The notes: a model not told the origin generated them from the letters alone. A stretch of 64,000 nucleotides of DNA from Pseudomonadota bacterium (GCA_039814715.1 JBCCAR010000004.1:32985-96984), one strand, 5' to 3'; counted from the first letter of the stretch, positions 40,350-62,734 are shown. Numbers and translations are program-made.

Positions 40350-40367
40350 ATGGAGATTTGATATCCC

Positions 40368-42233: not shown

Positions 42234-43183
42234 TATTGGTTGCTGACATCGGCGGTACAAATGCTCGCTTTGCAATAGCTGAGTGTGGTCCAAACAGCAT
42301 ATCCCTGCACGATCCACAAAGCTTCCGTGCGGAAGACTTTGAAACGGTACGAGATGCGGCAGACGCGTATCTGGAATCTGTATCAGCCAAGCCCAATCAA
42401 GCCTGTTTTGCTGTTGCAGCCCCAATAGAAAGCGATGACATCGCCTTTACCAACAGCCCTTGGAGCTTTAATCGCAAATCCATTCAGACAGACTTAGCCT
42501 TCGAACAATTTTCCGTCGTCAACGACTTTGCTGCTTTAGCGGCAGGCATCGCCGCAATCCCAGAGGACTTTGTTGAACCTGTAAGAGGTGGGACAGCGCA
42601 GAAAAACGCACCAAAGCTGGTCATCGGTCCAGGAACGGGGCTTGGCCAAGCGCTGCTCGTTCCTTGCGGGCGAGAAGACCGCGTGATCTCCACGCAAGGC
42701 GGGCACGTCTCTTTCGCGCCGCGCTCTGACCTTGAAATTCAGGTTATGCAATTCATTGCCCGCGAGCATCCGCGTGTCTCGGTCGAGCGGCTCTTATGCG
42801 GGCGCGGTCTCATTAATATTCACCGCGCACTGTGCCATATCGCCGATACGCCCCGCACCTCTTTGCAAGCCAATGAAATAACCCAGGCCGCACGTACGCG
42901 AGAGCATCCCATTGCCGCCCAAGCTGTGAGTTTTTTCTGTAACCTCTTGGGCGCAGTCGTCGGCGATGCAGCCCTCTCCAGCGGCGCACGCGGCGGGATA
43001 TACCTGGCCGGCGGCATTCTGCCCAAAATCAAAGACATTTTTCACAAAAGCGATTTCGAGGCGCACTTTCTGAGCAAAGGACGGATGCAATCCTACCTCG
43101 AACCAATCCCCATAACACTCATTACAAAAGAGGGCACAGCGCTCTACGGCGCAGCGAAATCACTCAAAGAACCTACCGCCTAA
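42230..43183 (+). CDS. glk: Glucokinase
   Basis: [28 protein letters not shown]. Confidence 0.95.
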
Positions 43184-44841: not shown

Positions 44842-44897
44842 GTCGCCCGTGATTTTCGGTGATTTGATCTGACTGAAGCGAGCGGCTGGTGGATTTT

Positions 44898-46263
44898 TCA
44901 GCTCGCTGGCGCTCTTCTAGCAGCATTGAATAGAGCCCAGGCGAGCAATCGAGACAAAAACTCTGTCAGCCACCGGGCCAACAGGCGTAGATTGTGTCCG
45001 GCGGCGCAGAGGATGGCGTTGATGGCGTCTGCGTCAGTGCCTGCGAGGTGGTTTCGTTCGAGATGACCATCGTCCTTGAGGTGGCCGATGACTGGCTCTA
45101 TTGCATTGCGTCGTCGCATTTCGCGCCGGATGGTGGGCGATGCCACCCCTCGGGTGTGGCTGAGCGTGATGTCGAGCCCATCGCGCTCGATCGCGTGGCC
45201 GCTGTAGCCCCTATCGACATAGGCCCGCCTGACGGTAACTCCGGTCAGCTTGGCGGCCTGCTCAATCTGGCCATTCAGTGTGTGTCCGTCCCCCGGGTCA
45301 AGCCCGAGGGCAGGCTCCAGGATTGCCAGGCAGCGCCATGGCACCGAGCACGAACTGTCCCCCTTTGCATCGCTCGTTGGTGGTGGCGATTGAGGTCTTC
45401 ACACCAAACTCGTATCGGGTGCGCGCTTTGCCCTTGCCGATACAGTCGACCTCCGGCGCGTGGAGCGCATAGAGCTTGTCTTTGTCGCCGGGCTGTTGAG
45501 TATGGATTTTCTCGGCACGTTCGAGGGCGATTTCAAACGCTATCTCCAGGTCTGCGTTCCCTGCGATCTTTCGCTTGATGTCGCGGATTAGGCGGCCGAG
45601 CCATGTCCGCATCTTGCGCACCCAGCGCTGCCCCTGTTTGTGGCCGCGCGTGTGCATCAGGCGGGATGCCTCGCGCCGCGCCCGGGTGGCCAGGCGGATG
45701 AAGGACTGGCGCAGCTTGACACCATGGCGCTTGGCTGCCCGGTTCAGCCATTCGATCGCCCGCAGCAGCAAGTGACTGTCCGCCCTCTGCGCCACCGCCT
45801 TGGTCTGCACCGTGGTGTCAACGGTGATCCGTTCCAACTGGCGCCGGCTGACGGCCTTGGTCTTCACTGCAACGCGAATAGTCTCGGCCAGCAAGACCTC
45901 CAGATCGCGTGGCCCGATACGCCCACGCCAACGGGTCATAGAGGACCGATCAAAGGGCAAGCGATGCTGGAAATGCGTCTCGCCGCAGAACGCTTGAAAA
46001 TACGGATTTTCCAGCCAAGTCGTGCAGGTCTCCTCGTCGCTGAGACCTTTCATGTGCTTGAGCAGATGCAGCCCGGCCATCAGCCGGGTCGCCAGCCCCC
46101 GCCGACCTTTGCCTGGATGATAGAGCGGCCCGAAGGCATCGTCGAAGCGGTCCCAGTCGATCAATGCGGCCAGCCGGAGCAGGTCGTGTTGCGGATCCAG
46201 GATCGCTTCTAAAGAGCTGCGGAACAGGTCGCCGTTCGGCATGTCAGGTTTGGCAGGACGCAC
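44898..46263 (-). pseudogene. IS5 DDE transposase, frameshifted by a 28-nt hairpin insert
   Basis: DLFR..L, WLENPYFQAFCG, VDTTVQ, YEFGVK, then DGHTL, DRGY.GH, RRNAIEPVIGHLK in another frame. Confidence 0.9.
45291..45318. repeat. REP-like mini-hairpin inserted in IS5 transposase
   Basis: CCCCGGG-TCAAG-CCCGAGGG-CAGGCTCC separates PGNP from DGHTL. Confidence 0.7.
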
Positions 46264-46456
46264 GGCTCACCTCGTGCATCAATCTCGTCATCCAGATCGG
46301 ACCATAACAAAACCGAAAAGGGAATCCCCTACGTGCACGTACGTACAAAATCGCAAGGTTTTGACCCGATCCCAACACAAACCTTGCGATTTCGAATATT
46401 TCCTGCCGCCCAAAATTAATCCAAATTCAACACCTTAGGGGAAAATCACGGGTGAC

Positions 46457-46821
46457 GCGCTACAACTATCAGGCACGCGGCGTAGAACCGTCGGATTATC
46501 TCGGTGCGCTTCCCCCTTAGCTGGGCGCGATGATTGCGCGAATGGATAAGATAGCAGCGTTCTCGCCCCCCCGACCAAGCGATCATGAACGAATATACAC
46601 CGGGCCAAGGCATCGCACCGCATGTGGATTGTGTGCCTTGTTTTGGCCCCTTCGCCGCATCCCTGAGCCTCGGCAGCAGCTGCGAAATGCTGTTCCAACG
46701 TGTTGCAACAGCAGAGATCCAAAAGCTGCATTTGCCAAGGGGTCGGGTCAGGATAGTTTCGGCCCCTAGCCGCCATTCCCTTCCCTTAGTAATTGTTGCG
46801 GCGCACCACCTAAAAAGCTGA
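46457..46821 (+). pseudogene. AlkB-family 2OG-Fe(II) dioxygenase remnant
   Basis: RYNYQAR...YLGALP, then DQAIMNEYTPGQGIAPHVD...SLSLGS; 5' end lost at the IS, frameshifted, C-terminal motifs absent. Confidence 0.75.
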
Positions 46822-47033
46822 CATTCCAATCCAAAAAATCCGCCTAATTAAGCATACTCCGGTATGCTTGGTCGATCGTGGTGAATTAGTGCTTTAGTTT
46901 TTGCAGTAGAGTTGGAGAAAACTATTGCGTAGCTCCAATAACTAGCCAATGCTATTTCGATTAAGCGTACCTGGAGCCATGGCGTAGTCATACGATAGTT
47001 GGCTCAATGCCCTCGAGTTGTTTTTCGCAGATG

Positions 47034-48794
47034 TTAAACAGCCGCCTGTGCACCTGATAAAGACCGTGTCTCAGGGTCCAGTTTTATTTCCAGATCGTGG
47101 TGAGCGCGCAAGCTTTCCCTGTGCGCGATGGAAACGAGCGTTGTGTTGGGTAATTCCGATTTAAGGGCGTGATAAATAGCTGCTTCGGTGTCGGGGTCCA
47201 TGGAGGCCGTTGCTTCATCCAAAAAGAGCCACTCCGGCTTTGCCAAAAAGGCCCGTGCCATCGACACGCGCTGTTGTTCCCCGCCCGACAGCACGCGTGC
47301 CCAGTCGCGCGTCTGATCCAAGGATCCGATGAATTTTTCAAGCCGGCACAAGCGCATAACGTCTTCGATCCGCTCTGGTTCAATCGACGCTTGATTTTGG
47401 TTTGGATAGGTCAAAACCTCACGCAAGGGAGAAATGGGAAGATATGGCCTTTGGGGAAGGAACATCGTGCGCTCTGTAGGAAGAGTCAAACTGCCCTCGC
47501 CCCAAATCCACAAACCGGAAAATAAGCGGAATAGCGTGCTTTTCCCGCCACCGGACGGCCCGGAAATCAGAACATCCGTGCCTTTCTCCAGTTTGAAGCT
47601 GACGTTCTCAAGCAATGGGTCGCCAGTGGGGAGGTTCAAAGTGACCCCCTTGATTGAAACCAGTTCTTTATCGACAGAGTGTCTTAGAACACGGCTGGCT
47701 TTCTGTTCGGCGCGGGCAGCTTTAAACGCGTCGTCCAGCGTGAGGACACGATCTACGCTAGACTTCCAAACCGCAAGCTTCTCATAGGATTTGGCGAACC
47801 AGGATAGAGAAAGCTGAACCTGCATAAAGGCCTGGCTGAGCTGCATAAAGCCGCCAAGGGCGATTGTTCCGGCAACAAGAGCAGGCATTGCAGCAATAAA
47901 TGGCACTAGCGTTCCGCCTTGCGATAAGCCGAAATCAAAGGCCATGAGCCGGCGCTTATACTTTATGATCACCATCCAGTTATCCCAAATGGAGGCGAAC
48001 CTAGTGTTCAGGTCATCATACTCTTTCCCTTCGCCACCAAGGAGCGCAATGCTCTCCGCGTTTTCACGAAGGCGAACGAGGTGATATCGAAAATCTGCCT
48101 CGACGGCTTGCCTATCGAAGTTCAATCGCGACAGCGGATGAGCAAGGGTGTGGGCGAGCCATGTCCCCACGACAGAAAAGATAAGAGCGACCCAAAACAT
48201 ATATCCGGGGATCACGATGGCGACCCCAAAAACGCTGAATTCCATGGGTCCTGATACAGACCATAGGATGAAACTAAACACGGATAACTTCCCAAGAGCA
48301 CTGATGAATTGGAGACCTAATTCAAGCGTCTCCTGCGCGATGTTGAGCATATCCATGGAGATGCGTTGGTCAGGATTATCCATCTTGTAATCACCTAGTT
48401 CGAGCTGATTGTAGAGATGGTTGTCCAAGTACCCGCGCAGATATGTCTGCGTTAAAAAGCGCCGCCAGTGGATGATGAGCTTATTTTGGACATGGACTTG
48501 GAGCACGTACATAATGAGCATACCGCTCAAATATCCAAGCCATACCAGGATCGCATTCCAGATCACATCAAATGAACGCTGTTCTATGGCGTTAAACAAT
48601 CCCGCTGTGGCGAAACTCAATTTCGTTATCAAGTAAAGCAGCAGCCCTTCGACAGCGAGGACCGACAGCAGCAAAAACCATCCGGTGCGTCTGTCTTCTG
48701 AGACCCAATACGGTTTCACGAGATTGAACGTGCGACCGAGAAAAACTTGAAACTCTCTCAAACGAACGGCTTTGTTTTTCACGGTACGGTCCAA
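47034..48794 (-). CDS. Fused ABC transporter, ABCD-like (BclA/Rv1819c/YddA type)
   Basis: DNPDQRI, EADFRY.LVR.RENAESIAL, GPSGGGKST, LPQRPYLP, LSGGEQQR, LDEATA; TTG start. Confidence 0.9.
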   Translation of the reverse strand: MDRTVKNKAVRLREFQVFLGRTFNLVKPYWVSEDRRTGWFLLLSVLAVEGLLLYLITKLSFATAGLFNAIEQRSFDVIWNAILVWLGYLSGMLIMYVLQVHVQNKLIIHWRRFLTQTYLRGYLDNHLYNQLELGDYKMDNPDQRISMDMLNIAQETLELGLQFISALGKLSVFSFILWSVSGPMEFSVFGVAIVIPGYMFWVALIFSVVGTWLAHTLAHPLSRLNFDRQAVEADFRYHLVRLRENAESIALLGGEGKEYDDLNTRFASIWDNWMVIIKYKRRLMAFDFGLSQGGTLVPFIAAMPALVAGTIALGGFMQLSQAFMQVQLSLSWFAKSYEKLAVWKSSVDRVLTLDDAFKAARAEQKASRVLRHSVDKELVSIKGVTLNLPTGDPLLENVSFKLEKGTDVLISGPSGGGKSTLFRLFSGLWIWGEGSLTLPTERTMFLPQRPYLPISPLREVLTYPNQNQASIEPERIEDVMRLCRLEKFIGSLDQTRDWARVLSGGEQQRVSMARAFLAKPEWLFLDEATASMDPDTEAAIYHALKSELPNTTLVSIAHRESLRAHHDLEIKLDPETRSLSGAQAAV

Positions 48795-48831
48795 GCTTTA
48801 TGGTGGTTGCAAGTGATATGCTTGCTGCGCG

Positions 48832-50829
48832 CTACCAAATGCGCACGCGCTCTTCTGGCGGCAGATAAAGGGGTGCGTCTTTTGGGACATCAAAGGCGTC
48901 ATACCAGGCGTCGACATTCCTAAGGGCGCCGTTCACCCTGAATACGGGTGGCGAATGAACGCCGGATTTCAAGCTTGCCAGTTCCGCCTGCTCACGCATC
49001 TTCATGCGCCAAATTTGCCCATAGGACAAAAAGAAACGCTGATCGCCCGTCAGCCCGTCAATGATCGGCGGTTCCTCGCCGTTCAAGCTCAGCCTATAGG
49101 CATGATAGCCAAGGGTCAGTCCGCCTAGGTCAGCAGTGTTTTCTCCCAGGGTCAGTTCGCCATTCACGAAAGCACCAGGCCGCAATTCATAGGCGCTAAA
49201 CTGTTTGACGAGGACGTCTGTACGTTCCTTAAAGCGCGCGATGTCGTCTTCCGCCCACCAGTTTCTCAGGATGCCTTTTTCATCGTATTTCCGGCCTTGG
49301 TCATCAAAACCATGCCCCATTTCGTGGCCGATCACAGCACCGATGGCGCCGTAGTTCACAGCCGGATCAGCGGCTGGATCAAAAAATGGGGCCTGCAGGA
49401 TAGCAGCCGGGAAAACGATCTCGTTAAAGAGCGGGTGGTAGTACGCATTCACCGTTTGCGGCGTCATGAACCACTTCGTGCGGTCGGTTGGTTTGCCGAG
49501 CTGATCCAGTTTTTCATGATACGCAAAGCGGCTGGCACGGCGCGCGTTGCCATAAAAATCGTCTTCCTCGATGTCGACGCTGCTGTAATCCTTCCAGTGC
49601 TCGGGGTAGCCGATTTTGGGAAGGAATGTTGCGAGCTTCTTCCTAGCTATCGCGCGTGTCTCTTCGCCCATCCACGGCGCTGTTTCGATGCGCTCGGAGA
49701 ATGCAGCCATGACGTTCGATACCAATGCATCCATCTGGGTCTTGGCCTCTGGCGGGAAGTGGCGGTCAACATAAAGCTGGCCCACTGCGTCGCCGAGATG
49801 ATGGGAAACCAAACCAACCGCGCGTTTCCACCGTGGCAACCGCTTTTGTTGACCGCTCAGGGCGCGCCCATAGAAATCAAAGGATGCTTCTGCGATGTCA
49901 TCAGATAACAAAGCAGATTGGCTCACCAAGAGCTTGTAGGCCAAATAGGCGCGCCAAACCGCGGGCGGTGTTTCAAAGACAGCCTTTATAACCCCCTCAA
50001 CAGCGCTCGGCATGGTGACGTTAAGGCGGCTAACGTCCGGTACAAGCGCTTGCTGAAAGAATTCAGCCCAAGCCACATCCGGAAAAGCGTTGCACAGCTG
50101 CCGAAAGCTATAAATATTATACGTCTTGTCAGCGTCGCGCATGTCAGTGCGCCGCCAATGTGCCCGCGCCATCCGAGTTTCAAGTGCCAGAATCTGCTCA
50201 GCGCTCTCTCGTGACTGGTCTTCATCAAACCCAGCCAATGGCAAAAGGTCTTTAACGTTCTTAAGAAAGGCAGTGCGGACGCTTTTAAAGTGCTCCACGT
50301 CTTCTAAATAAAAATCGCGATCTGGTAGCGACAGGGCACCCACACCAATCATGAGAATTTGACTGTCAGGGTCTTTCACGTCGGGACCTGTATTCCAGGC
50401 GATCGGCGAATAGAAGCCATCAAGGCCCGCGCGGGCGAACAAAAGGAAAAGCGCATCAACCGACGCGATGGCGTCGATCTCGCCTAAAAGACTTTCGATC
50501 GGCTCTAACCCGCATGCATTGACGCGCGCCTCATCCATAAAGCTGGCGTAAAAATCCCGAACCTTTTGCTGAGGTGAACCGAGCGCAACCTCACCTTCAA
50601 TGAGGTCTTCGATAAGCGCATGAACCTTCTAGTCTGCTTCATCAGATAGCGCATGGAAGGCTCCGAACGCCGCCTTATCCGCAGGCAATTCGTACTCGTC
50701 CATCCACGTGCCATTAACGTAGCGGAAGAAGTCTTCACCTGGCGCAACACTGGGATCACCCAGGCTCAGATCAACGCCCCAAGTGCCGAATGTGGGCCGC
50801 TTTTCTTTGTCAGCTTCAGAAGTACGCAT
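48832..50829 (-). pseudogene. M13 (neprilysin/PepO-like) zinc endopeptidase with one in-frame TAG at 50629-50631; no signal peptide
   Basis: DFFRYVNGTW...SDEAD*KVHALIE...DFYASFMDE in one frame; VNAYY, HEMGH, GENTAD, HSP motifs intact. Confidence 0.9.
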
Positions 50830-50853
50830 AGCTGTCCTCAACACTCATTTCCA

Positions 50854-51945
50854 CTAAGTCAGCAGGGGCTTTAAGGCTTCAAGCTGCTCTAACCTCTGCT
50901 GAGCCATCTCGATTTTCGGGGGAAGCGTCTCTTCAGCCAGGGCTTTGGTTATCGCCCGGAGGTTCGCTTCGTAGGGCGTTTCGTCATCATCGTTGGTCGC
51001 TAGCGGGTCAAGGCCGCGCTTTATGAGAAGTTCCACGACGTCTTTATCAGACACCAAAGCTGCAAGATGCAGCAAGGTCCCACCATCTCTGCGGCTTTTA
51101 CGCTTTAGATCAGCGCCCAAATCGAGCAGCCGCTCCACAAGCGTCGCATTCCTATGAAAAACGGCCATTTCAATTGGCGAGATGTTTTCAACATCCCGCC
51201 CAGCCCAATTGGGATCCGCGCCCGCGCTGAGGAGCAAATCAATCCCTTCGGATTGACCGTTGAGCATCGCGACCATCAGGGGTGCTAGGTCATCGGCCGC
51301 GGGCTGATGAACAAGCTCTGGATTAGCGTCAAGCGCTGCGCGTGCATCTTCCATACGGCCGAGCCCGATAAGCTCATCAAAGCTCAGGGGCGAAATATAG
51401 GATGCGAACAGCTCTTTGATCTCAGGCAACAAACTGTTGCGCAAGGCGATCCCAAGCGGCGTCAATCCGTTCTTTATCTGAGTGGTGGCCAGATCTGGAT
51501 GGCGCTGGAGCGCGCGGCGAAGGTCGTCAAGGCTGGCAGACAAAAGAAAGCTCAACCTCTCCTCAGGATTCTCAATACGTGCGTCCACCAACGCATCGCT
51601 GTCTGCACCAGCGAGGATTCCATCTAGGAGATTTTTATAAGCGGCATGGGTTTGTGCGCCAACGACACTGGTCACGGGCTCACCGCCGTTAAAAATGATC
51701 ACATTGGGTACGCCGCGCACGCCGTATTGCTCGGCAAGTTGTGGCGCTTGATCGATGTCGAGCTTGGTAATTTTAACTTTGCCTGCAAACTCACTGGCGA
51801 GGCGACCAAGGGTTGGCGCCAACGCAAGACAAGGGCCGCACCACGTCGCCCAAAAGTCAACCAGAACCGGTTGCGCGGCGCCTAAGACTTCACGGGCAAA
51901 GGTCTCCTGATCTAGGGCGATAACATCATCATCGGCTTTCGCCAT
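50854..51945 (-). CDS. Thioredoxin-ankyrin repeat fusion protein
   Basis: VDFWATWCGPC and YGVRGVP Trx domain; repeats PLMVAMLNG...LLLSAGADPN, PIEMAV...LLDLGAD, TLLHLAA...LLIKRG. Confidence 0.88.
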   Translation of the reverse strand: MAKADDDVIALDQETFAREVLGAAQPVLVDFWATWCGPCLALAPTLGRLASEFAGKVKITKLDIDQAPQLAEQYGVRGVPNVIIFNGGEPVTSVVGAQTHAAYKNLLDGILAGADSDALVDARIENPEERLSFLLSASLDDLRRALQRHPDLATTQIKNGLTPLGIALRNSLLPEIKELFASYISPLSFDELIGLGRMEDARAALDANPELVHQPAADDLAPLMVAMLNGQSEGIDLLLSAGADPNWAGRDVENISPIEMAVFHRNATLVERLLDLGADLKRKSRRDGGTLLHLAALVSDKDVVELLIKRGLDPLATNDDDETPYEANLRAITKALAEETLPPKIEMAQQRLEQLEALKPLLT

Positions 51946-52076
51946 TCGGTTCGGTCCTTTTTAAAGAAAACGGGTGTGTTAGCATGGAGGTGTAGGGCGT
52001 GAGAAACACTGCTAAACCGAGCGCATAAGTCCCGTCGCAGCTGCCGTGCCCGAAAACCCGCTACGGTTTTGCCGCC

Positions 52077-54863
52077 CTACCACTTCTTTGTGATTTCAAA
52101 TGACATGAATCGCTGTGTCGGATTGGCGTTTGTAGGGTCAAATCCAAACCCGCCGCGTGCAACGTCATCAGGTGTTAGAGGGGGAGCCTGATTGAACAAA
52201 TTGATGATGGACAGCCGGAAAACCGTGTTTTTCAGCACACCGCTCGTGATTGTTTCGCTGGTATCATACGCGATGTTTAGGTCGAAGGTTGTCCAAGAAT
52301 CAATGTCGAACGCGTTTGTCGTGGTGTCCGTCTGGTAACTGTCCACGTAGTTCATAAAGAGATTGGCAGAAAGACCTTCGCGTGAATAACCTGCTTGCGC
52401 GCGTACATTCAGATCGACAGGATTGAAAAGCGTGTTCAAGGACTCAATCGCAGGGCTATTCACTGAAGCTTGCCGCACGAAATCAATCAAGTAGGTCCCA
52501 TTGATGCCAAAGGTCAAAACGCCTGGATCCAGATCGTAGTTATAGGTGGCGCTGAAATCCAACCCAGAGACGTCCGTTCGCACCAAGTTCGTCGTGACCA
52601 AAGCGCGACTAATAATTGAGGCGTCCTCTGGGTTGGTGCCAGGGAACGGCCCTAGGTTAACAAGTGAGTCTAATATGCTCGACACCTCCGCCTGCGAAGC
52701 GTTGAAGGTCACTGTGCCAGCAGGGAACGCGTCAGGATCAGAGAATGCAATAAACGGAGCTAACAAAGGACTCACGTTTCCAGGGATCGGGAGATTACCA
52801 AGCTGTCCCTCAAACTTGATGTCGAAGTAAGTCGCAGACAGCGAAATACTATGGTCGCCCCAACTTTGATCGAAGTCTGCACCCACGGTGAATGACGTTG
52901 ATGTCTCAGGGTCTAGGTCAGCATCTGTACCTGAAAGACTTAAGAGCACCTCATTCGCAATAGAAGGGTCTGGCGCGGGTGTCATAGTAAAGAGGCTCAC
53001 AATCGACGTAGGGATTGCTGCAGCTGACAAGTCATTGGCCCCAACTCGGCCCAAAGACGGTGGTTTGAACGAAGTATTATATGATCCCCTCAGCCGGAGT
53101 GGCTTAATAGGTGACCAGACCACACCAACTTTGGGGTCAAAAGTAGACCCAAAATCACTATAGTCTTCAAACCTGCCGGACACGTTGACTTCTAGTCGGT
53201 GTATGCCGGGTATATCTTGAGCGGGCCCAACAAGGGGAATGTTGGCTTCACCAAATAGCGCGTAGACTTCGCGGTCAGCCTCGCGGTCGATCCTGTCAAA
53301 TACGACATTAAAATTGCTGAAATCTTCCTTACGGAAATGAACACCGACAGCCACGCCGACGTCGCCCGCAGGTAGCTCAAAAACAGACCCCGACGCGATG
53401 AGATCTGCGGCCAACACATCAGAATTAAGTTCTACTGATACGAGATTACCAATGTCTACTGGCGTGCTCTCAGTGCTACTTGAAACCGTGCTGAAGCCAC
53501 CTGAGAACATCAAGTGCCAATTGTCAGTTATGTCCCAATCCAACCCTAGGCCCAGGTTGAAGTTATCGACATTCGCTTCTGAATCGGCCCCCTGGATCGG
53601 CGTCCGGACAGATTGCAGGGTTGTCCGCGTCGAAAATGAAGCATCGGCAGACACTTCCAGCGTTGGCGTAAATTCATGCTTTACGGAGGCTAGCAGACTG
53701 TGTCGCTTCTGGGTTGGTGTGAGATCGCTCAGCAATATCTCGTCGTCTGTGAAAGACTGCATGAGTTCGTCTGGCAAAGACTGAACCACGTCGACGGCGA
53801 ACGAACGATCAGCTGCACGTAGGCGGTCCCGATCGAAAAACTCATAAACAAAAATTCCGTTGCCTTTGCCCCAGTTTTTCCCAAGCGTGATATTCGTCCG
53901 AAATTCGTCCAAATTCCCATTGGTAACGGTGCCATATCGTCCGGTGGTTTCTATGCCGTCGAAATCATCGCGCAGGATAAAGTTGATGACACCAGCGACT
54001 GCATCGCCGCCGTAAATGGAGGACGCTCCATCTGTCAGCACCTCAACCCTTTCGATGGCAGAGGCAGGTATCAACGAAACATCAACAAAATCGCCAATGG
54101 CTGACGATGGTGCAATACGCCGTCCATTAAGCAGAACCAACGTGCTACCGGATCCAAGCCCCCGCAAGTTAACACCTGTTCCGATTGAACCGCCGTTGAA
54201 CTGGCTATTAAATGCAGCGTTGATATCATCACCAACAAAGAACGACGTGTTGGCAATCGAGCCGCCGCCAAAGTTCTGCGTTAGCGTTTGAATGAACTCA
54301 ACCGCAGTGGACGCACCGGAATTTAAAATGTCTGCTCGGTCAAAACTCAGAACAGGAGAGCTCTCCGGCGCAATGCCTCGGATATTGGTACCTGTGACAA
54401 CAATGACTTCTTCTTTCTCTTCTTCATCGTTGTCAACACGGGGTTGTGGGACACTCACACTGCCTGTTTGATCTAGCTGAGCCACCTGAAAGGGCCTGAG
54501 CTCCGCCTGGCTGCTTAACCGAGACTGCCGGACGAAGTCGTTTCCAACGAGAAGCGTTCCATTGTCGTCGACGCGGTACTTAACGCCCGTGCCTTCTAGA
54601 AGCAGCCTTAAGGCTTCTTCAGGCGTGTATGTGCCATCAAGTTCTTTAGCCGTTTTGCCACGAACGTCTGCATCCTTAAAGAGCACCTGCTGCCCAGCGG
54701 CGATGCCGTACTCAGTGAGTGCCTCACCCAGCTCCTTGCTTTTAATATCAAATTCATACGTTTCACGTGCTTGCGCCGCGACGGGCGAAGCCATCGCGAT
54801 AGCTGAGAGGGCGCATCCTGTCAGCACCGCGTTTTTAAAGATTTTCCCGCTGTAGAAAGTCAT
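52077..54863 (-). CDS. TonB-dependent transducer (STN signalling domain)
   Basis: Signal peptide, STN (FDIKSKELGEAL...LLEGTG), VVTGTNIRG, NLRGLG...TLVLLNGRR, GASSIYGGDAVAGVINFI, terminal W. Confidence 0.93.
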   Translation of the reverse strand: MTFYSGKIFKNAVLTGCALSAIAMASPVAAQARETYEFDIKSKELGEALTEYGIAAGQQVLFKDADVRGKTAKELDGTYTPEEALRLLLEGTGVKYRVDDNGTLLVGNDFVRQSRLSSQAELRPFQVAQLDQTGSVSVPQPRVDNDEEEKEEVIVVTGTNIRGIAPESSPVLSFDRADILNSGASTAVEFIQTLTQNFGGGSIANTSFFVGDDINAAFNSQFNGGSIGTGVNLRGLGSGSTLVLLNGRRIAPSSAIGDFVDVSLIPASAIERVEVLTDGASSIYGGDAVAGVINFILRDDFDGIETTGRYGTVTNGNLDEFRTNITLGKNWGKGNGIFVYEFFDRDRLRAADRSFAVDVVQSLPDELMQSFTDDEILLSDLTPTQKRHSLLASVKHEFTPTLEVSADASFSTRTTLQSVRTPIQGADSEANVDNFNLGLGLDWDITDNWHLMFSGGFSTVSSSTESTPVDIGNLVSVELNSDVLAADLIASGSVFELPAGDVGVAVGVHFRKEDFSNFNVVFDRIDREADREVYALFGEANIPLVGPAQDIPGIHRLEVNVSGRFEDYSDFGSTFDPKVGVVWSPIKPLRLRGSYNTSFKPPSLGRVGANDLSAAAIPTSIVSLFTMTPAPDPSIANEVLLSLSGTDADLDPETSTSFTVGADFDQSWGDHSISLSATYFDIKFEGQLGNLPIPGNVSPLLAPFIAFSDPDAFPAGTVTFNASQAEVSSILDSLVNLGPFPGTNPEDASIISRALVTTNLVRTDVSGLDFSATYNYDLDPGVLTFGINGTYLIDFVRQASVNSPAIESLNTLFNPVDLNVRAQAGYSREGLSANLFMNYVDSYQTDTTTNAFDIDSWTTFDLNIAYDTSETITSGVLKNTVFRLSIINLFNQAPPLTPDDVARGGFGFDPTNANPTQRFMSFEITKKW

Positions 54864-54943
54864 GAGCCCCCCTGGCTTCCCGATTAGTTGGTTTGGTATA
54901 TTTTTGTTGCTAGGGCGGCTATGAACGCGCCCTTCATGACTAC

Positions 54944-54969
54944 AGACGCGGAAGCTAAGAAATGCTTCA
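54944..54969 (-). promoter_or_regulatory. Candidate ECF promoter of the TonB transducer
   Basis: Minus strand TGAAGC-N15-CGTCT; near-copy upstream of the sigma gene. Confidence 0.55.
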
Positions 54970-55008
54970 TCAAAAATTTACGAAATCGCTGCGGAGGATG
55001 CGCCTGCG

Positions 55009-56091
55009 TTATTCGCGCCAGACAAGCAGGAGCTCATTGCGGCCAGACCGTCGTGCTTCCAGCTGATGCATCGCCTCTAGAGCATCGACAAATGCTGACG
55101 GGGGGCCGCCGTTGTTGAACACGCCGCTGACTTTCAGAGACAGCACGCGCTCATCCATGTCCAAAACGAGTTGCTGCGTACTATAGCGGTTCAATTCAGC
55201 AACAACGTCTGACAAAGCACGCCGGCGGAAGACAAGCTGGCCGCGGCGCCAACTGGTTTCTTCCAAACCGTCTGTTTCGATGATCTCAGGTGCCGCGTTG
55301 GTCCGCGCGATCAAACGCTCTCCAGGATTGAGCTCAATAACGGAACTAACAACAGCTGGCGCTTGGACAACGCCGGCTCGGCTACCGCGCTCGGTTTCGC
55401 TGTGTGTGGCACCAGCGTCGTCAACTTGAACTTTGCCTTCTACGAGCGTGACCTGGACTTCATTTTGGTCGTCAAACCGGACATCAAAGACTGTCCCGAG
55501 CGCGAGCACCCGAGTTTCTCCAGCCACCACAACAAAGGGCCTGTTTATATCCTTCGCAACGTCGAAATAGCCCTGACCACGGGCCAACGTTATCTCGCGT
55601 TGATTGTCCGTGTAACTGACTTCGATCCTGGAGTTCGTGTTGATCGTGACAACGCTGCCATCGGACAGGGTGACGGTGGATCGCTCACCGATCTGTGTTT
55701 CGTAAGACTCAATAGCGCGCGCAACAATGATTGATGGGTCGTCCGTCTGTGAACGCGGCATCACGGTTACGCTGGCCGCGAGAATTGCGATACACGCAGC
55801 CGCCGCGCTCGCCCAGCGTAGGGTATTGCTCTTCCAAAACGGTGGTTTGGTCCGTCTGCGTGCGAGTTCTATGCGCTCCTGAAATTCAGGCGCTTCCATG
55901 AAGCGATCAAGATAGTCGTTGCCGCGCTTTATTTTCTGATAGGCAGCTTCGTGCGCTGGATCTTCGCGGTACCAGATGTCGAAAGCATAGCGGTCTTCAG
56001 GGGAGCAATCCTCAGCGCCCAAACGCACAACCCAATAGGATGCGATGGCCTCCAAGTCCCCTTCAAAGACGTTTAAATCCCGCGGGCTCAT
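55009..56091 (-). CDS. FecR-family anti-sigma/signal transducer
   Basis: A..W.VRL...F..W...DPAH..AY, one TM, T.IGER..VTLSDGS, G+AYFDVAKD..RPFVV, LGTVFDV, WRRGQLVF. Confidence 0.93.
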   Translation of the reverse strand: MSPRDLNVFEGDLEAIASYWVVRLGAEDCSPEDRYAFDIWYREDPAHEAAYQKIKRGNDYLDRFMEAPEFQERIELARRRTKPPFWKSNTLRWASAAAACIAILAASVTVMPRSQTDDPSIIVARAIESYETQIGERSTVTLSDGSVVTINTNSRIEVSYTDNQREITLARGQGYFDVAKDINRPFVVVAGETRVLALGTVFDVRFDDQNEVQVTLVEGKVQVDDAGATHSETERGSRAGVVQAPAVVSSVIELNPGERLIARTNAAPEIIETDGLEETSWRRGQLVFRRRALSDVVAELNRYSTQQLVLDMDERVLSLKVSGVFNNGGPPSAFVDALEAMHQLEARRSGRNELLLVWRE

Positions 56092-56636
56092 GTCAATTCA
56101 CCAAAGACCTGGCCGACACGCTTGGTCGCCGTCATCAAGTGCTTATCTACAGCGCTCACTGATATCCCCAAGCGTTTGGCCACTTCATGGCGCTTATACC
56201 CGTCAAAACGGCACAGGATGTAGATGTCCTGTGTGCGTTCCGGCAGACGAGAGAGCGCGTCAAAAATTCGGTTTATCGCCTCTCTGCCCTCATAGACGCG
56301 CTCGGGCGAAAAGCCTTCAGGTGAATGATCTCCATCGCCGTATTCCTCGTGCTGCGCTGCATGCCGAACCTGCCCAGCGCGCAGGTGATCATTCCAAACG
56401 CTTGATGCCGTTTGCATCACATAAGCTGCTGGATGATCAATCTCGCCGGCTTGTTTGCGCCTTAAGAGACGCAAAAAAACATCCTGGACCAAATCGTTGC
56501 TGAGATCGGGGCACGCGCAGCGGCGCATGAAAAAGGCAGTCAGCGCTGGCTGGAACTCCTGCGCATAGGCATCGATTTGCGCGCGATCAATTGACCGCAG
56601 ATCCGCCCTTGCCTCCGTCTTGCTAGGAATTCCCAT
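56088..56636 (-). CDS. FecI-like ECF sigma factor
   Basis: DLVQDVFLRL, LPERTQDIYILCRFDG....EVAKRLGISVSAVDKH; 4-nt overlap with fecR; start uncertain. Confidence 0.9.
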   Translation of the reverse strand: MGIPSKTEARADLRSIDRAQIDAYAQEFQPALTAFFMRRCACPDLSNDLVQDVFLRLLRRKQAGEIDHPAAYVMQTASSVWNDHLRAGQVRHAAQHEEYGDGDHSPEGFSPERVYEGREAINRIFDALSRLPERTQDIYILCRFDGYKRHEVAKRLGISVSAVDKHLMTATKRVGQVFGELT

Positions 56637-56774: not shown

Positions 56775-56801
56775 AGACGCGCGGAACCCTCAAACGCTTC
56801 A
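56775..56801 (-). promoter_or_regulatory. Candidate ECF promoter of the sigma/fecR operon
   Basis: Minus strand TGAAGC-N16-CGTCT, similar to 54944-54969. Confidence 0.55.
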
Positions 56802-57164
56802 ATTATTTGTAGACCCATCGTCCCGGTTGTCCGGTCCTCCTTTAGTCGTGGTGTCATTCGAGGGCGAACAACAGCTGGTATTCTGGCCGGCGAACAAGCT
56901 TCATCATGCTGGTGAATATGTCATTCAGCGAGTTTGGCCGATTAATGGCAGGTCTTCGACGGCCTGTGTTTAGATGCTGTGGCGAAACACACCGTCTGTA
57001 TCGTTGATCTCATAATGCGCACAGCGGCGCGAGGACGAAGCCGCTCGCGCGGCAATGGAGTTTGTGGCTGATGTCCGGGTCAATCTCATAAGCCGGGATA
57101 TTTTGCGATTTTGCCAACCTGTCTGACGATTGGGGTCTTCTCAATCAACAGACAGGAGGTTTCC

Positions 57165-57983
57165 ATGACCGAGGAGAGAACGAGCCCGCTGCGTAAACGG
57201 ATGATCGAAGACATGCGTCTTCGCGGGATGGGCGAGAAAGCCCAGAAGGCGCACATTCGGGCCATCAAGGACTTTGCTGCCTTTTTGAGGCGATCACCGG
57301 ACACGGCCACCCCGGAGGATCTGCGCGCCTACCAGCTCCATATGACGGACACTGGGGTCACGCCACCAACCTTCAATTCCCGCATTGTGGCGCTGCGCTT
57401 CTTTTTCGGCATGACCTGTGGACGCGAGGACATCAAAAAGTTCATGCAGTTTCGCACACAGCCGCGCAAGCTGCCGGTGGTGTTCAGCGTTGAAGAAGTC
57501 TCCGATATCCTGATGGCAGCGCCAGGACCGGGCCTGAAGTATCGCGCTGCGCTGAGCATTTCCTATGGCGCGGGTTTGCGGGCCGCCGAGGTCTGCATGC
57601 TCAAGATCGGCGATATCGACAGTGACCGCATGCTGATCCATGTCGAACAGGGCAAAGGCCGCAAGGACCGCAAGGTGATGCTGTCACCAGGCCTCTTGGA
57701 GCTGTTGCGCGATTATTGGCGTGAAGCCCGGCCACAGGGATGGCTGTTCCCCGGCAAGCCGAAGGTCAACTCGCTCTCGCCGCGGCAGCTCAACCGGGCT
57801 TTTACATCGGCAAAGGCGATGGCGGGCGTGACGAAGGTGGCGACGCTGCATACCTTGCGGCACAGTTTTGCCACGCATCTGCTGGAAGCCAACACGGATG
57901 TGCGGGTCATCCAGGTACTTCTCGGGCACGCCAAACTGACCACGACGGCGCAATATACCCACGTTGCCACCAAGACCATCCGC
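57165..57983 (+). pseudogene. Tyrosine recombinase (XerD-like), C-terminal tail deleted
   Basis: YGAGLRAAE, QGKGRKDR, HTLRHSFATHLLE, LLGH, YTHVA all present; GGAGG RBS. Confidence 0.88.
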
Positions 57984-58836
57984 CGAGACGGTCAGGACCC
58001 TTGCCGCCGATCCTAAGCGCATACCTGGATCAAAAACCGGCGCGCGAGTGGGCATCACCAGTGTCCTCCACACTTGGGGATCGGCGCTCACACACCATCC
58101 CCACATTCACATGATCGTTCCGGGGGGCGGCCTGTCTCCAGACGGCACCAAGTGGGTGGCCTGCAAACCTGGCTTCTTCATTCATGTGCGTGTTCTCTCC
58201 CGGCTGTTCCGGCGCCTGTTTCTTGAAGGACTGGCGGCCTTGTACCGCGATGGACAGCTCACCTTCTTCGGCGACCTAGGCCATCTGTCCGATCAGCGCG
58301 CATTCACAGCCTGGTTGACACCCTTGCGCAGATGCGACTGAGTGGTCTACGCCAAGCCCCCGGTTGGCGGCCCCGAGGCCGTCCTTGCCTATCTCAGCCG
58401 CTATACCCACAGGGTGGCGATCTCAAACACCCGTCCGGTCAGCGCCGATGCTCGGACGGTGAGCTTCCGCTGGAAAGACTACCGCATCAAATCGGGCAAT
58501 CGCCAGAAGATCATGCGTCTCGACACTGCTGAGTTCATCCGTCGCTTTCTGATGCATGTTTTACCAACAGGCTTTCACCGCATCCGACATTATGGGGTCT
58601 TGGCCAGTGCTACCCGCAAAGCCAACATCGCTAAAATCCGCACCCTGCTTGCAGTGCCGCCTCAAGACCAATCAGCAGAAACAGTGCTTGAGGCAGAGGA
58701 AGGGTCGGCTACGCCCACCTTGCGTGCACCCTGCCCCTGCTGCGGGGGAGTGATGCGTATCATCGACGTCTTCCAGCGCGGCCAAACACCTAAACAACCA
58801 AAGTCGCGGGCACCGCCATGGGACCAGGCGGCATGA
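57979..58836 (+). pseudogene. IS91-family transposase, N-terminal Zn domain deleted, TGA at a conserved Trp (58339-58341)
   Basis: VLHTWGSAL.HHPHIHMIVPGGG, D*VVYAKPP, YLSRYTHRVAISN, EFIRRFLMHVLP.GFHRIRHYG, CPCCGG. Confidence 0.9.
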
Positions 58837-59471: not shown

Positions 59472-60251
59472 CTAAAAGGCGTAATGCTCCGGAGATTGGG
59501 CCGTCAAACCGCCATCCACAACGAGTAGATGTCCAGTCACATGCTTGGCGTCGCTCCCCGCTAGAAACGCCACGGGGCCGGCGACGTCATCAGGGTCTGC
59601 CCACCGTTTCAGGGGGGACATCTCACTAAGCTTTTGTCTCATGCCAACATCATCGCCGATCGAAGCTTGAATGATTGCCGTTTCGACCGGACCGGGCAGA
59701 ACGGCATTGACGCGCACACCATGCTGGCCCCATTCGCAGGCCAAGGATTTTGTGATGCTGTTGAGCGCTGCCTTTGATGCTGCATAGGGCGCGCCGACAG
59801 GGACCCCGTTGAGGCCTCGGATACTGGAGACAAATATAACCGCGGCTTCAGGCGCTGCGAACAACGCTGACGCCAAATTTTGCAGCAGAATGAGCGGTGC
59901 CTCGAGGTTGATCGTTTGAACCTGCCTCCACCCTTCAAACGAGTGCTTTTCTAAAGGATCAAACGGCCCGGATATCCCAGCATTGCTGACGACAATATCG
60001 ACACCGCCATAGAGCGTGCAGATGTCCGCGGCAAACCCGGGAATTGCCTGGATATCCGCCAAGTCGGCGACGACCGCTGCGGCCTTCACGCCGTGGCCTA
60101 TAGCACGCGCAACTGTTTCGCTGAGTTTGTCAGCATCACGGTCAATGAGAATGAGGTTGGCGCCCTCTCTCGCAAATCGACTTGCGATTGCTTCCCCAAT
60201 ACCGCGCGCCGCGCCGGTGATGACTGCTGTTTTACCTGCAAGACTACCCAC
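59472..60251 (-). CDS. Short-chain dehydrogenase/reductase (classical SDR)
   Basis: TGAARGIG, NAG, YAASK, VNAVLPG, VDGG. Confidence 0.93.
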   Translation of the reverse strand: MGSLAGKTAVITGAARGIGEAIASRFAREGANLILIDRDADKLSETVARAIGHGVKAAAVVADLADIQAIPGFAADICTLYGGVDIVVSNAGISGPFDPLEKHSFEGWRQVQTINLEAPLILLQNLASALFAAPEAAVIFVSSIRGLNGVPVGAPYAASKAALNSITKSLACEWGQHGVRVNAVLPGPVETAIIQASIGDDVGMRQKLSEMSPLKRWADPDDVAGPVAFLAGSDAKHVTGHLLVVDGGLTAQSPEHYAF

Positions 60252-60378
60252 CGTGATGATTCCTCTGTTTCGAAAACAATTTCATGTGTTGCGTGAGATA
60301 CCGGCCCGAGGCGGTCCGCGCACCGAGAGTGTGTGCGCTAAGGTTTGAAAAAGTCAGCAGCCTTGCGCCGCTATAAAC

Positions 60379-62685: not shown

Positions 62686-62734
62686 AGGCCCATTATTAAA
62701 TTCAAAGGATTTTGGTTTTTCGCTTTATTATTTT

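Follow-up and report, generated by a model that had tools for sequence, protein, structure and literature searches.

The closest published analogues of the locus described here are the isopeptidase clusters of lasso peptides, the uptake route of the lasso peptide ubonodin, and the protease-associated import systems. In isopeptidase clusters (astexin/AtxE2 and sphingopyxin type) a sigma/anti-sigma pair and a TonB-dependent receptor adjoin the peptidase, as described in passages of PMC9266682. Ubonodin enters through PupB, which is encoded in a fecI-fecR-pupB operon, and the inner-membrane ABC transporter YddA (passages of 10.1101/2022.03.09.483586). We group microcin J25 (FhuA and SbmA) with the ubonodin route as an analogue of the two transporters of our locus. 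The Fus system of Pectobacterium and the YddA-YddB-PqqL system of E. coli each have a receptor, a protease and an inner-membrane transporter in one cluster. Stand-alone genes of the BclA/BacA/Rv1819c family encode importers of Cys-rich NCR peptides and cobalamin (according to parts of PMC8442886 and, for NCR peptides, also of PMC12912959 and PMC5567381).

We analysed a 64-kb window (the whole stretch of DNA under study) from a marine bacterium, in which six co-oriented ORFs lie on the minus strand at 47034-56636 (Table 1). ORF calls and domain searches bear out the six genes listed in an earlier, sequence-only reading of the window, and Pfam and NCBIfam searches agree with all six gene labels. 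The spacings given in that reading are also correct: the sigma and FecR genes overlap by 4 nt, and the gaps are 131 nt from receptor to thioredoxin-ankyrin (Trx-ANK) gene, 24 nt from Trx-ANK to M13, and 37 nt from M13 to ABC. The gap between the FecR and receptor genes is 145 nt, and the block is flanked by IS and integrase genes.

Table 1. Genes and predicted promoters of the six-gene block, in window coordinates.
Feature	Coordinates	Strand	Domains or basis
ECF sigma factor, 182 aa	56088..56636	-	PF04542, PF08281, TIGR02937 (70.3 bits; cut-off 42.9), regions 2 and 4
FecR-type anti-sigma factor, 360 aa	55009..56091	-	PF16220 (DUF4880), PF04773 (FecR domain)
TonB-dependent receptor with N-terminal STN signalling domain, 928 aa	52077..54863	-	PF07660, PF07715, PF00593
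Thioredoxin (WCGPC)-ankyrin fusion with C-terminal helical hairpin, no leader, 363 aa	50854..51945	-	TIGR01068 and Ank families
Leaderless M13 (neprilysin/PepO-type) zinc oligopeptidase, 665 codons, in-frame TAG	48832..50829	-	PF05649, PF01431
ABC half-transporter, SbmA/BacA-like membrane domain and nucleotide-binding domain, 586 aa	47034..48794	-	PF06472, PF05992, PF00005
Predicted ECF-type promoter TGAAGC-N16-CGTCT, upstream of sigma gene	56775..56801	-	strict pattern match
Predicted ECF-type promoter TGAAGC-N15-CGTCT, upstream of receptor	54944..54969	-	strict pattern match

The claim that no described system has this gene combination holds in part: we did not find the combination itself in the literature, but the analogues above come close. 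Like the isopeptidase clusters, the block has a sigma/anti-sigma pair and a homologous TonB receptor near a peptidase. Those clusters, however, have an S9 isopeptidase (periplasmic, with a leader) and lasso B and C genes, none of which is in the block, where we find instead the Trx-ANK fusion, a leaderless M13 and an inner-membrane ABC transporter. The ubonodin route resembles the block in combining a signalling-type TonB receptor with an SbmA-like ABC transporter that has an ATP-binding domain, both membranes being crossed, but there an antibiotic exploits two housekeeping transporters whose genes are unlinked, and the peptide is left undegraded, whereas a reductase and a peptidase are encoded along with them in the block. 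The FusA/YddB-type receptor and periplasmic M16 protease that define the Fus and YddB-PqqL systems are absent from the block. In 7 supplementary files of PMC6793856, which make up part of that source, there is no mention of thioredoxin, M13, TldD or ankyrin.

The order of the six genes is identical in three lineages verified at the DNA level–the window, the congener G003 and the metagenome contig L192–with protein identities to the window of 73-86% in G003 and 54-77% in L192 (51-78% at its widest). The flanks are unrelated among the three: ornithine cyclodeaminase, MFS transporter, beta-lactamase-fold and EamA genes in G003, and Trp dioxygenase, RsgA, LptCAB and RpoN genes in L192. Nucleotide synteny between the window and G003 covers 56657-47048 and ends at the block edges. 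All six genes evolve under purifying selection, with dN/dS ratios against G003 between 0.07 and 0.15 (0.07 for sigma, 0.11 for FecR, 0.08 for M13). In the four genomes of the genus (88-92% complete), Trx-ANK, M13, the ABC membrane domain and the receptor are all present in G000 and G003, and none of them was found in G001 or G002, so that the block is accessory (2/4 genomes). The form with Trx-ANK and M13 is DNA-verified in these three lineages only, two of which belong to one genus.

These data bear on the possibility that the receptor trio lies by chance beside three unrelated cytoplasmic and membrane genes. Trx-ANK, M13 and this ABC are absent from all 20 of the nearest receptor loci of the order, and 20 other M13 loci of the order likewise lack any such neighbours, as might be expected if the six genes had no common function. 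Nevertheless, we regard a chance assembly as very improbable: gene order and tight spacing are kept in three lineages although their flanks are unrelated and synteny stops at the block edges, presence in the genus is all-or-none, and the leaderless M13 and the Trx-ANK fusion were each seen only with the block. The whole block thus recurs with different flanks in three lineages, and the gene-neighbourhood search also found a related set, repeating the theme, in the distant complete genome G980 (see below).

The receptor has a signal-like N-terminus, visible in its translation, and its STN domain (PF07660, residues 59-107) scores 42.6 bits, above the cut-off of 28.4. We built the receptor phylogeny that the sequence-only reading had proposed comparing with lasso-cluster receptors, and the window receptor groups among them: its clade lies within a 22-row ingroup (support 95/94), beside a lasso-linked receptor (96/89), with 32-42% barrel identity to the receptors of lasso isopeptidase clusters. 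S9 isopeptidase-like and/or LasB/LasC-like genes are carried by 17 of the 20 nearest receptor loci of the order. The S9 proteins of the lasso-linked loci have leaders, so that peptides are processed in the periplasm there. This kinship strengthens the version of the earlier reading in which the ligand is a foreign RiPP. The same reading had noted no precursor or biosynthetic genes, and we likewise found no LasB, LasC or precursor genes in the window, the G003 locus or L192, no S9 peptidase match in the window, L091 or L192 at E 1e-8, and no PF13471 in any of the four genus genomes (0/4, at 88-92% completeness).

The proposed BclA-like identity of the ABC transporter is upheld by its best match among solved structures, 6tqe (E 1.1e-83, residues 25-572), which covers its full length and which we take to be the importer Rv1819c. 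Its membrane-domain and ATPase profiles score 145.2, 74.4 and 69.6 bits (PF06472, PF05992 and PF00005), the Walker A, signature and Walker B motifs are present in the translation, and a 40%-identical relative is labelled 'vitamin B12/bleomycin/antimicrobial peptide transport system' by a source. The transporter shares its membrane-domain families with the BclA/BacA/Rv1819c importers but differs from those stand-alone genes in sitting in a multigene block, and it falls in a separate clade of 25 rows. This clade groups as sister to the ABCs of the order that are linked to peptidases, but with weak support (90 SH-like, FastTree, long branches). A control search of E. coli with PF06472 found a match, presumably YddA, and on this family basis the transporter of the block may be of the YddA/FusD kind. 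Of 60 class-level loci of related ABCs, 59 have no receptor, peptidase or thioredoxin adjoining the ABC, and membership of the ABC family therefore does not in itself imply such a system.

Could the ABC transporter instead export, with the block maturing and secreting an endogenous product and the receptor trio serving for its re-uptake or for autoinduction? YddA of E. coli has been investigated as a possible efflux pump (PMC9728188), and ABC exporters do occur in lasso clusters. Those exporters, however, have PF00664 rather than PF06472, the best solved match of our transporter is presumably an importer, and the precursor, LasB, LasC and PF13471 searches just described were negative. The spacers contain no conserved small ORF, and the 131-nt spacer between receptor and Trx-ANK is only 27 nt long in G003 (66 nt in L192). 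We consider export highly improbable.

The Trx-ANK protein scores 99.9 bits against the TIGR01068 cut-off of 96.8, with WCGPC at residues 35-39. Its AF2 model (mean pLDDT 88.5) has a thioredoxin fold at residues 1-111 followed by helical repeats, and the CxxC is kept in every relative seen. A separate TrxA-like gene elsewhere in the genome supports the view that the thioredoxin of the block is a dedicated one. The M13 protein has both domains of its family (PF05649, 284.6 bits; PF01431, 227.6 bits), and HEMGH and GENTADLGG, which we take to be the M13 zinc-binding motifs, can be read in its translation. Neither protein appears to have a signal peptide, as the sequence-only reading had stated; this holds in all three lineages, with N-termini judged by eye rather than by a predictor. 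For M13, the ATG is closely preceded by a stop codon, and the N-termini in the window, G003 and L192 have no hydrophobic stretch. Of 19 other M13 proteins from the order, nearly all have a lipoprotein- or signal-like leader by the same visual criterion.

The M13 ORF of the window is broken by a single in-frame TAG at 50629-50631; the defect is not a frameshift. Aligned over 10.2 kb, Logan contigs from the only run that holds the block differ from the window at one position, C for A at 50631 (plus strand), which changes TAG to GAG (Glu). This run is possibly the window's own sample and so counts as a second assembly, not a second sample. The L192 orthologue also has Glu at this position, and the gene is uninterrupted in both G003 (670 aa) and L192 (664 aa). 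Because the independent assembly reads GAG, the window M13 is probably intact and in no need of repair. If the TAG is real in some cells, the pathway would be broken in those cells.

The sigma ORF is open back to a TTG at 56744, but we take the ATG at 56636 as its start because the orthologues are 182 aa long (549 nt in both G003 and L192). FecR has a hydrophobic stretch near residues 92-110, read off its translation, and the 4-nt overlap of its gene with sigma points to translational coupling. Together with the STN receptor, these genes make up a cell-surface signalling trio of the FecI/FecR/FecA type. A strict ECF-promoter pattern has two matches in the 64-kb window (chance mean 0.20; at least two matches in 2 of 100 shuffles). 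The match upstream of sigma falls in a stretch conserved with G003 and L192, and the one upstream of the receptor lies in the most conserved part of the FecR-receptor spacer in all three lineages. We infer that these TGAAGC-N15/16-CGTCT sites may act as promoters.

Trios of sigma factor, FecR and STN receptor are classic regulators of iron uptake. We considered whether the cargo of the receptor is a peptide or small protein that carries a metal, such as a siderophore-like lasso peptide, a Cys-rich metallopeptide or, as in Fus, a ferredoxin-like protein. The ABC transporter would bring in this cargo or its fragments, and thioredoxin and M13 would free the metal by both reducing and cutting Cys ligands. 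Clusters of M16, receptor and ABC genes occur in this order and in metagenomes, some of them with sigma/FecR genes, and the nearest receptor relative outside the window clade, L272 (42% identity), is followed by a PepSY_TM protein and no lasso gene, which hints at a siderophore-like cargo. Protease-associated import pairs a TonB receptor and a protease with the inner-membrane transporter FusD (part of PMC6793856), and a siderophore-like action has been hypothesised for isopeptidase-type lasso peptides (passages of PMC9266682). The block itself fits metal piracy poorly: its peptidase is a cytoplasmic M13 and not a periplasmic M16, it has no reductase, PepSY or other metal-handling gene, and the receptor matches other receptors in its plug and STN domains but neither FusA nor YddB at E 0.001 (a search of solved structures by sequence, not by fold). 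Upstream of sigma and the receptor in the three lineages, no Fur-box-like site rises above background (best 10-11/19, the highest 11/19, against a background mode of 10-11), which is weak evidence since the consensus is of the E. coli type. Overall, we think metal piracy unlikely.

The reading we prefer, held with about even confidence on the basis of sequence comparison, is signalling-controlled import of a foreign constrained peptide across both membranes followed by its destruction in the cytoplasm. The cargo is probably lasso-like, disulfide-bridged or both; the earlier suggestion of a defensin- or toxin-like ligand is conjecture. Binding of the peptide to the receptor would signal through FecR to free the sigma factor, which would drive its own promoter and that of a receptor-TrxANK-M13-ABC operon. 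TonB energy would carry the peptide into the periplasm, and the Rv1819c/BclA/YddA-type transporter would move it into the cytoplasm. There the dedicated thioredoxin would reduce its disulfide(s), with the ankyrin domain positioning the enzyme on the cargo or on a partner protein, and the M13 oligopeptidase would cleave the opened peptide. The direction of transport, the ligand, the role of the ankyrin domain, the order of reduction before cleavage and the purpose are all presumed in this scheme. We know of no M13 enzyme that opens isopeptide-threaded lassos, and therefore a lasso ligand would need another route of linearisation. The sense-import-reduce-degrade proposal thus gains from the recurrence of the block, the receptor kinship, the identity of the ABC transporter and the absence of biosynthetic genes at the three loci, while the repair of M13 is probably superfluous and the claim to have no known relatives holds only in part.

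Its purpose might be nutrition, quenching of a competitor's peptide, or detoxification. The same steps could also be protective rather than nutritional, an envelope-active antimicrobial Cys-rich or lasso peptide being pulled in and inactivated, in the way that BacA and BclA shield rhizobia against NCR peptides. The accessory status of the block (2/4 genus genomes) and the IS and integrase flanks in the window would suit a trait gained under local pressure, and BacA and BclA import NCR peptides (parts of PMC12912959 and PMC5567381). An inducible high-affinity TonB receptor that raises the entry of a toxin into the periplasm is, however, an odd defence, and the evidence here cannot separate purpose from mechanism. 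We rate self-defence as quite unlikely.

Elements of the proposed import-and-destroy pathway recur elsewhere. G980 has the gene order ABC-TldD-TldE-response regulator-histidine kinase-receptor, with a convergent Trx-ANK gene 346 bp away; its ABC is in the same clade as ours (47% identity), its receptor is of the TonB type, and TldD/TldE supply a cytoplasmic zinc peptidase. Two loci, L127 and L128, have the order receptor-ABC-TldE-TldD-Trx-unknown-M3, and L125 has M16-receptor-ABC-Trx-unknown-M3. These three modules resemble the block in having a TonB receptor, an SbmA-like ABC, a leaderless dedicated thioredoxin beside a partner protein, and cytoplasmic zinc peptidases. They differ in that the ABC is only about 30% identical to the window's, the receptors are siderophore-receptor-like, the thioredoxin is unfused with a neighbour lacking any ankyrin signal, and the peptidases are TldDE and M3, not M13.

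We tentatively suggest, with more doubt than confidence, that a modular family of TonB-dependent, thioredoxin-coupled import-and-destroy systems for constrained peptides has gone unrecognised, and that the block is its clearest example. In this lineage, a receptor module of lasso producers would have been rewired in a non-producer. Constant in such a family would be a receptor in the outer membrane, an ABC importer of the Rv1819c type and, in the cytoplasm, a dedicated thioredoxin and zinc peptidases. What would vary is the thioredoxin partner (ankyrin repeats fused to it, or an uncharacterised protein beside it), the peptidase (M13, TldD/E or M3) and the regulation (by an ECF/FecR pair, by a two-component system or by a regulator of the LysR type). 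Thioredoxin requires a cytoplasmic reductant, which gives a reason to shift peptide processing inward; processing would have moved from periplasm to cytoplasm because reduction needs cytoplasmic electrons. If this is true, a non-producer can sense, pirate and catabolise the disulfide-stapled or lasso RiPPs of its neighbours. More distant Trx-ANK fusions may also be tied to a window-clade ABC or a leaderless M13, to judge from contigs of the same size (37267, 7534 and 60464).

The six genes of the block (47034-56636) lie head to tail on the minus strand and were named by Pfam and NCBIfam matches in an assembly that is 92% complete in 71 contigs (Table). The sigma/fecR overlap and the three intergenic gaps that the sequence-only reading had described are correct against the ORF coordinates. 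The product of the fourth gene, Trx-ANK, is a fusion of thioredoxin and ankyrin repeats. Its AlphaFold2 model, built from 7 sequences with a mean pLDDT of 88.5, has a thioredoxin fold at residues 1-111, then roughly six helical repeat pairs and, at the C-terminus, a helical hairpin. Because the source genome (G000) also has a separate TrxA-like gene (45% identity in a 113-aa frame), the thioredoxin of the block is an extra, dedicated copy. The ABC half-transporter has its best match among solved structures, over its full length, to 6tqe (E = 1.1e-83), which we take to be Rv1819c.

Table. Genes of the block, neighboring features of the window, and related loci in other genomes and metagenomes
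Feature	Location	Strand	Description
ECF sigma	block	minus	regions 2 and 4
FecR anti-sigma	block	minus	DUF4880 and FecR
TonB-dependent receptor, 928 aa	block	minus	STN signalling domain, plug, barrel
Trx-ANK, 363 aa	block	minus	TIGR01068 at 99.9 bits (cut-off 96.8); WCGPC; ankyrin repeats
M13 peptidase	block	minus	both M13 domains; HEMGH and GENTADLGG
ABC half-transporter	block	minus	membrane domain matches ABC_membrane_2 and SbmA_BacA
In-frame TAG in M13	50629-50631	minus	single stop
Entner-Doudoroff row	38138-43183		beyond the IS5-like element
IS5-like element	44842-46456		16-nt inverted repeats at its ends, 94% complementary
IS5-like transposase ORFs	44898-45344; 45298-46263	minus	DDE_Tnp_1_6; DUF772; overlapping
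127-aa ORF	46446-46829	minus	between ABC and IS; no Pfam match; outside G003 synteny
Tyrosine recombinase, then Y2 transposase	57111-58836		Phage_integrase; directly upstream of block
Y2 transposase ORFs	57964-58341; 58342-58836		split gene
Genes further upstream	59472-63970	minus	short-chain dehydrogenase; second TonB-dependent receptor (768 aa, without STN); cytochrome P450
L272	9074-16635		locus of nearest receptor outside block clade
L125	4330-14601		M16-receptor-ABC and following genes
L127	2687-13209		STN-receptor-ABC module
L149	7232-9381		thioredoxin gene upstream of ABC
G980	L301 11426-19377; L293 7427-10830		complete genome, same class, other order
Trx-ANK P0366 and M13 P0244			equal contig size 37267
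Trx-ANK P0510 and ABC P0146			equal contig size 7534
Trx-ANK P0458 and ABC P0155			equal contig size 60464

The exact block was read as DNA in three lineages, two of them from one genus. In the congener G003 the gene order is kept across two overlapping contig ends, and nucleotide similarity to the window (75-77%) runs from window position 56657 to 47048, ending at the block edges. The third copy, on the 503-kb metagenome contig L192, has all six genes in the same order, with protein identities to the window of 77% (sigma), 75% (FecR), 63% (receptor), 54% (Trx-ANK), 70% (M13) and 68% (ABC); it was the one close relative among the 80 loci listed in a metagenome search with an alignment of the ABC membrane domain. 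The receptor/Trx-ANK spacer varies (131 nt in the window, 27 nt in G003, 66 nt in L192), and the Trx-ANK and M13 genes abut in G003. Between the window and G003 dN/dS is 0.07-0.15 across the six genes, values that are rough because dS > 1. Within the genus the four specific genes are all-or-none: Trx-ANK, M13, the ABC membrane domain and the receptor are all present in G000 and G003, and none of them was found in the congeners G001 (90% complete) or G002 (88%). A contig of only 2701 bases from another family of the order (C273 of genome G011, our locus L273) carries FecR and receptor sequence with 73% nucleotide identity to L192; no other part of the block turned up in the G011 assembly (90% complete, 330 contigs).

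In the window sequence the M13 reading frame contains a single in-frame TAG and no frameshift. Over 10.2 kb, Logan contigs from the sole public run with this stretch differ from the window at one place, position 50631, where the plus strand has C versus A in the window and the stop becomes GAG (glutamate); the M13 ortholog of L192 has glutamate at the aligned place. Since the run may be the window's own sample, the Logan reading is a second assembly rather than a second sample, and such contigs conceal minor variants at 50631. Intact genes encode 670 aa in G003 and 664 aa in L192, and M13 dN/dS between the window and G003 (0.08) is no higher than that of its neighbors. From the GAG codon, the intact genes and the low dN/dS, M13 is probably functional in the population.

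M13 peptidases are common in the order (359 of 401 sampled genomes), at no more than 54-55% identity to the block's copy, and in the 20 loci around the best matches we found no Trx-ANK, FecR or sigma gene (0/20), although two have a generic ATPase match about 4 kb off and one a receptor-like match about 6 kb off. Judged by eye from their N-termini, nearly all of 19 other M13 proteins of the order open with lipoprotein- or signal-like leaders, whereas those of the window, G003 and L192 begin directly at mature-domain sequence. In a collection of 5.8 billion proteins the leaderless form (664-665 aa) comprises four clusters with 63-100% identity to the L192 protein, beyond which identity drops to 54% or less and almost every match has 656-706 aa.

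The ABC membrane domain is rarer, occurring in 9 of 401 genomes of the order including G000 and G003, with the other seven at 30% identity or less. At class level a relative with 21-43% identity is present in 70/401 genomes (a tally that includes the unpublished genome G639, left out of all later steps), and metagenomes contain a graded series at 45-85% identity. In a FastTree phylogeny of 169 ABCs the window clade has 25 rows (support 100) and is sister to the order's peptidase-linked ABCs, with weak support (90) and long branches. Close relatives of Trx-ANK (at least 73% identity) form only 6 clusters. Searching 1.84 billion representatives with a profile retrieved more single-stretch, full-length fusions of 343-424 aa (P0366, P0411, P0431, P0449, P0452, P0458 and P0485), 30-46% identical to the window protein and all with the CxxC kept. 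The ankyrin part, used as a query in a protein atlas, matched generic ankyrin clusters only. With the whole protein as the query against genome contigs, all 80 listed loci matched only the thioredoxin end (query residues up to 174); that search is dominated by the thioredoxin word VDFWATWC and is uninformative on the fusion.

The receptor connects the block to lasso peptide clusters. Its barrel (629 aa) was matched at E = 1e-30 in 99 of the 401 genomes sampled from the order. Among the 20 best-scoring loci outside the genus, 17 contain an S9 isopeptidase-like gene and/or homologs of the lasso cyclase (Asn-synthase-like) and leader protease (transglutaminase-like), usually laid out as sigma-FecR-receptor-S9 beside a divergent B-C(-D) set; the exceptions are L272 (PepSY_TM downstream), the 2.7-kb contig L273, and L291. 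This layout matches the published architecture, in which a TonB-dependent transporter and a sigma/anti-sigma pair accompany "all the isopeptidase clusters" (PMC9266682). Trx-ANK, M13 and an SbmA-like ABC are missing from all 20 loci. We built a maximum-likelihood tree with an outgroup of six other receptors; in it the 22 ingroup rows group together (support 95/94), and the receptors of the window, G003 and L192 form a clade (100/100) that joins L272 (100/100) and then L287, which is lasso-linked and on a long branch (96/89); the lasso-linked receptors formed one group excluding the rest in 0 of 200 bootstrap trees. By sequence the block receptor belongs to the lasso-cluster receptor family. 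The L272 receptor, nearest outside the block clade at 42% identity, is preceded by sigma-FecR and followed by a 103-aa ORF, the PepSY_TM protein, a 190-aa ORF and, on the opposite strand, an S9 peptidase of ordinary prolyl-oligopeptidase type.

The S9 proteins beside lasso-type receptors carry leaders, which places processing there in the periplasm. S9, LasB and LasC have no match in the window, G003 or L192, and the LasB family (PF13471) was found in 0 of the four genomes of the genus. Lacking an isopeptidase and biosynthesis genes, the block lies outside the lasso isopeptidase clusters. Protease-associated import systems are defined by FusA-type receptors and M16 proteases (PMC6793856), neither of which was found in the block, and we dropped the reading of it as a plain system of this kind. 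It nevertheless shares parts and logic with both.

A published parallel is ubonodin, a lasso peptide reported to cross both membranes via PupB, which is encoded in a fecI-fecR-pupB operon, and YddA, an inner-membrane ABC described as an SbmA homolog with an ATP-binding domain (10.1101/2022.03.09.483586). The receptor and ABC of the block are the same pair of transporter types. Cys-rich NCR peptides and cobalamin are among the cargoes that BacA, BclA and Rv1819c bring in (PMC8442886). By analogy, the block would put a ubonodin-type inward route into one operon under the control of a ligand-sensing sigma system, and would add to it a cytoplasmic reductase (Trx-ANK) and a cytoplasmic oligopeptidase (M13). 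A foreign constrained peptide would induce its own import, then be reduced, then cleaved. The periplasmic isopeptidase of related receptor modules is absent, and M13, whose kin in the order are exported, is leaderless here. Thioredoxin receives its electrons from the cytoplasm, which would offer a simple reason for moving processing inward, namely that the cargo is reduced before it is cut. The reading that we favor, at roughly even odds, is ligand-induced import of a constrained peptide of foreign origin, which would then be reduced and cleaved, for the purpose of nutrition, quenching or defence.

The main rival is metal piracy, in the manner of the Fus systems (FusA-type receptor and M16 protease) or of siderophore-like lassos. 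We consider metal piracy unlikely.

Two candidate control sites were found for the block. In the three lineages, the best-conserved part of the spacer between FecR and receptor contains TGAAGC-N15-CGTCT, and a site of like form, TGAAGC-N16-CGTCT, precedes the start of sigma by 139 nt. Besides these two, the strict pattern has no match in the 64-kb window (mean expected by chance 0.20; at least 2 matches in 2 of 100 shuffles). A scan for Fur boxes with a consensus of E. coli type gave no site above background. We infer that the two sites may be ECF promoters, of an autoregulated sigma-fecR operon and a receptor-to-ABC operon. A loosened pattern did not discriminate genome-wide in G000 (41 sites versus 32 for the reversed control), and scans of the block for sigma-70 promoters (3 promoter-like sites versus a shuffle mean of 7.3) and terminators (13 versus 12.9) gave no signal above shuffles.

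A similar theme recurs with other parts. In the order, where our scope was the seven genomes with a distant (~30%) ABC relative, L125 and L126 have M16-receptor-ABC, followed in L125 by Trx (leaderless), an unknown protein and M3 oligopeptidase. The order in L127 and L128 is STN-receptor-ABC-TldE-TldD-Trx-unknown-M3, a module that ends in L127 with a PLP enzyme, and L129 starts in the same way until cut by the contig end. L130 has STN-receptor-M16-ABC-ExbB-ExbD with sigma-FecR 1 kb on, and in L131 the neighbors of the ABC are sigma, ExbBD, TonB and FecR. The L125 and L127 receptors are siderophore-receptor-like, not FusA/YddB-like. Between these two loci the unknown protein (264-296 aa, no Pfam match) is conserved at 33% identity (E = 8e-15); by BLASTP, the one following Trx in L127 has no similarity to the ankyrin part of Trx-ANK (E = 1.3). 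Metagenome loci L254, L257, L266 and L267 have a common FecR-M16-ABC core, to which tblastn adds sigma in all except L257 and a receptor in L266 and L267 (by Pfam, L266 reads FecR-STN receptor-M16-ABC), and L222 and L224 have ABC-M16, with a receptor-like ORF before the ABC in L222.

The top match to a profile of the window ABC clade (433 bits versus 353 for the next) was in G980, where one strand carries ABC (47% identical)-TldD-TldE-response regulator-histidine kinase-receptor (941 aa, no STN), and a 312-aa Trx-ankyrin gene is convergent with the receptor, 346 bp from its end; more TonB receptors lie on both sides. Proteins from contigs of equal size (Table) would place distant Trx-ANK fusions with a window-clade ABC or leaderless M13, at the level of the same contig only. 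At class level we covered 60 loci, of the 90 ABC matches outside G000, and in none of the 60 did a receptor or peptidase match stand beside the ABC (E = 1e-6); TldD was 6-7 kb off in two, a receptor 7 kb off in one, and in one, L149, the ABC is preceded by a same-strand thioredoxin gene some 170 nt away. These loci count against a general link of the ABC to receptor, peptidase and thioredoxin.

A full-text search of the published literature did not find the block's gene combination. The available supplementary files of PMC6793856 contain no thioredoxin, M13, TldD, ankyrin, neprilysin or oligopeptidase, and the main text of an SbmA/BacA distribution paper (PMC12003926) contains no peptidase, thioredoxin or neighborhood term, with TonB in the reference list only. 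The cargo and purpose of receptors in isopeptidase-type lasso clusters are still called enigmatic (PMC9266682). As a natural variant that keeps the lasso-cluster receptor and regulators, without biosynthesis genes, and adds a complete inward route with a reductase-peptidase pair, the block opens the question of lasso-receptor cargo to experiment. If our reading is true, it would mean that constrained peptides of other organisms are pirated by marine bacteria and eaten or disarmed, that importers of the BclA/Rv1819c type serve dedicated physiological cargoes brought by specific TonB receptors, and that a thioredoxin can be firmly coupled to a catabolic peptidase via an ankyrin adaptor; the related Trx + TldDE/M3 modules of other genomes would also become easier to approach.

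The flanks of the block differ in all three lineages. In G003 they contain ornithine cyclodeaminase, MFS, acyl-CoA ligase, beta-lactamase-fold and EamA genes, and in L192 tryptophan dioxygenase, RsgA, LptCAB and RpoN. Mobile-element genes are on both sides only in G000, with the IS5-like element on one side and the integrase and Y2 transposase on the other; no repeats flank the block except the IS's own 16-nt inverted repeat. The IS5-like transposase may be frameshifted, since it is split into overlapping ORFs. On the far side of this element the window has glucose-6-phosphate dehydrogenase, a 6-phosphogluconate dehydratase-type enzyme and glucokinase genes in a row.
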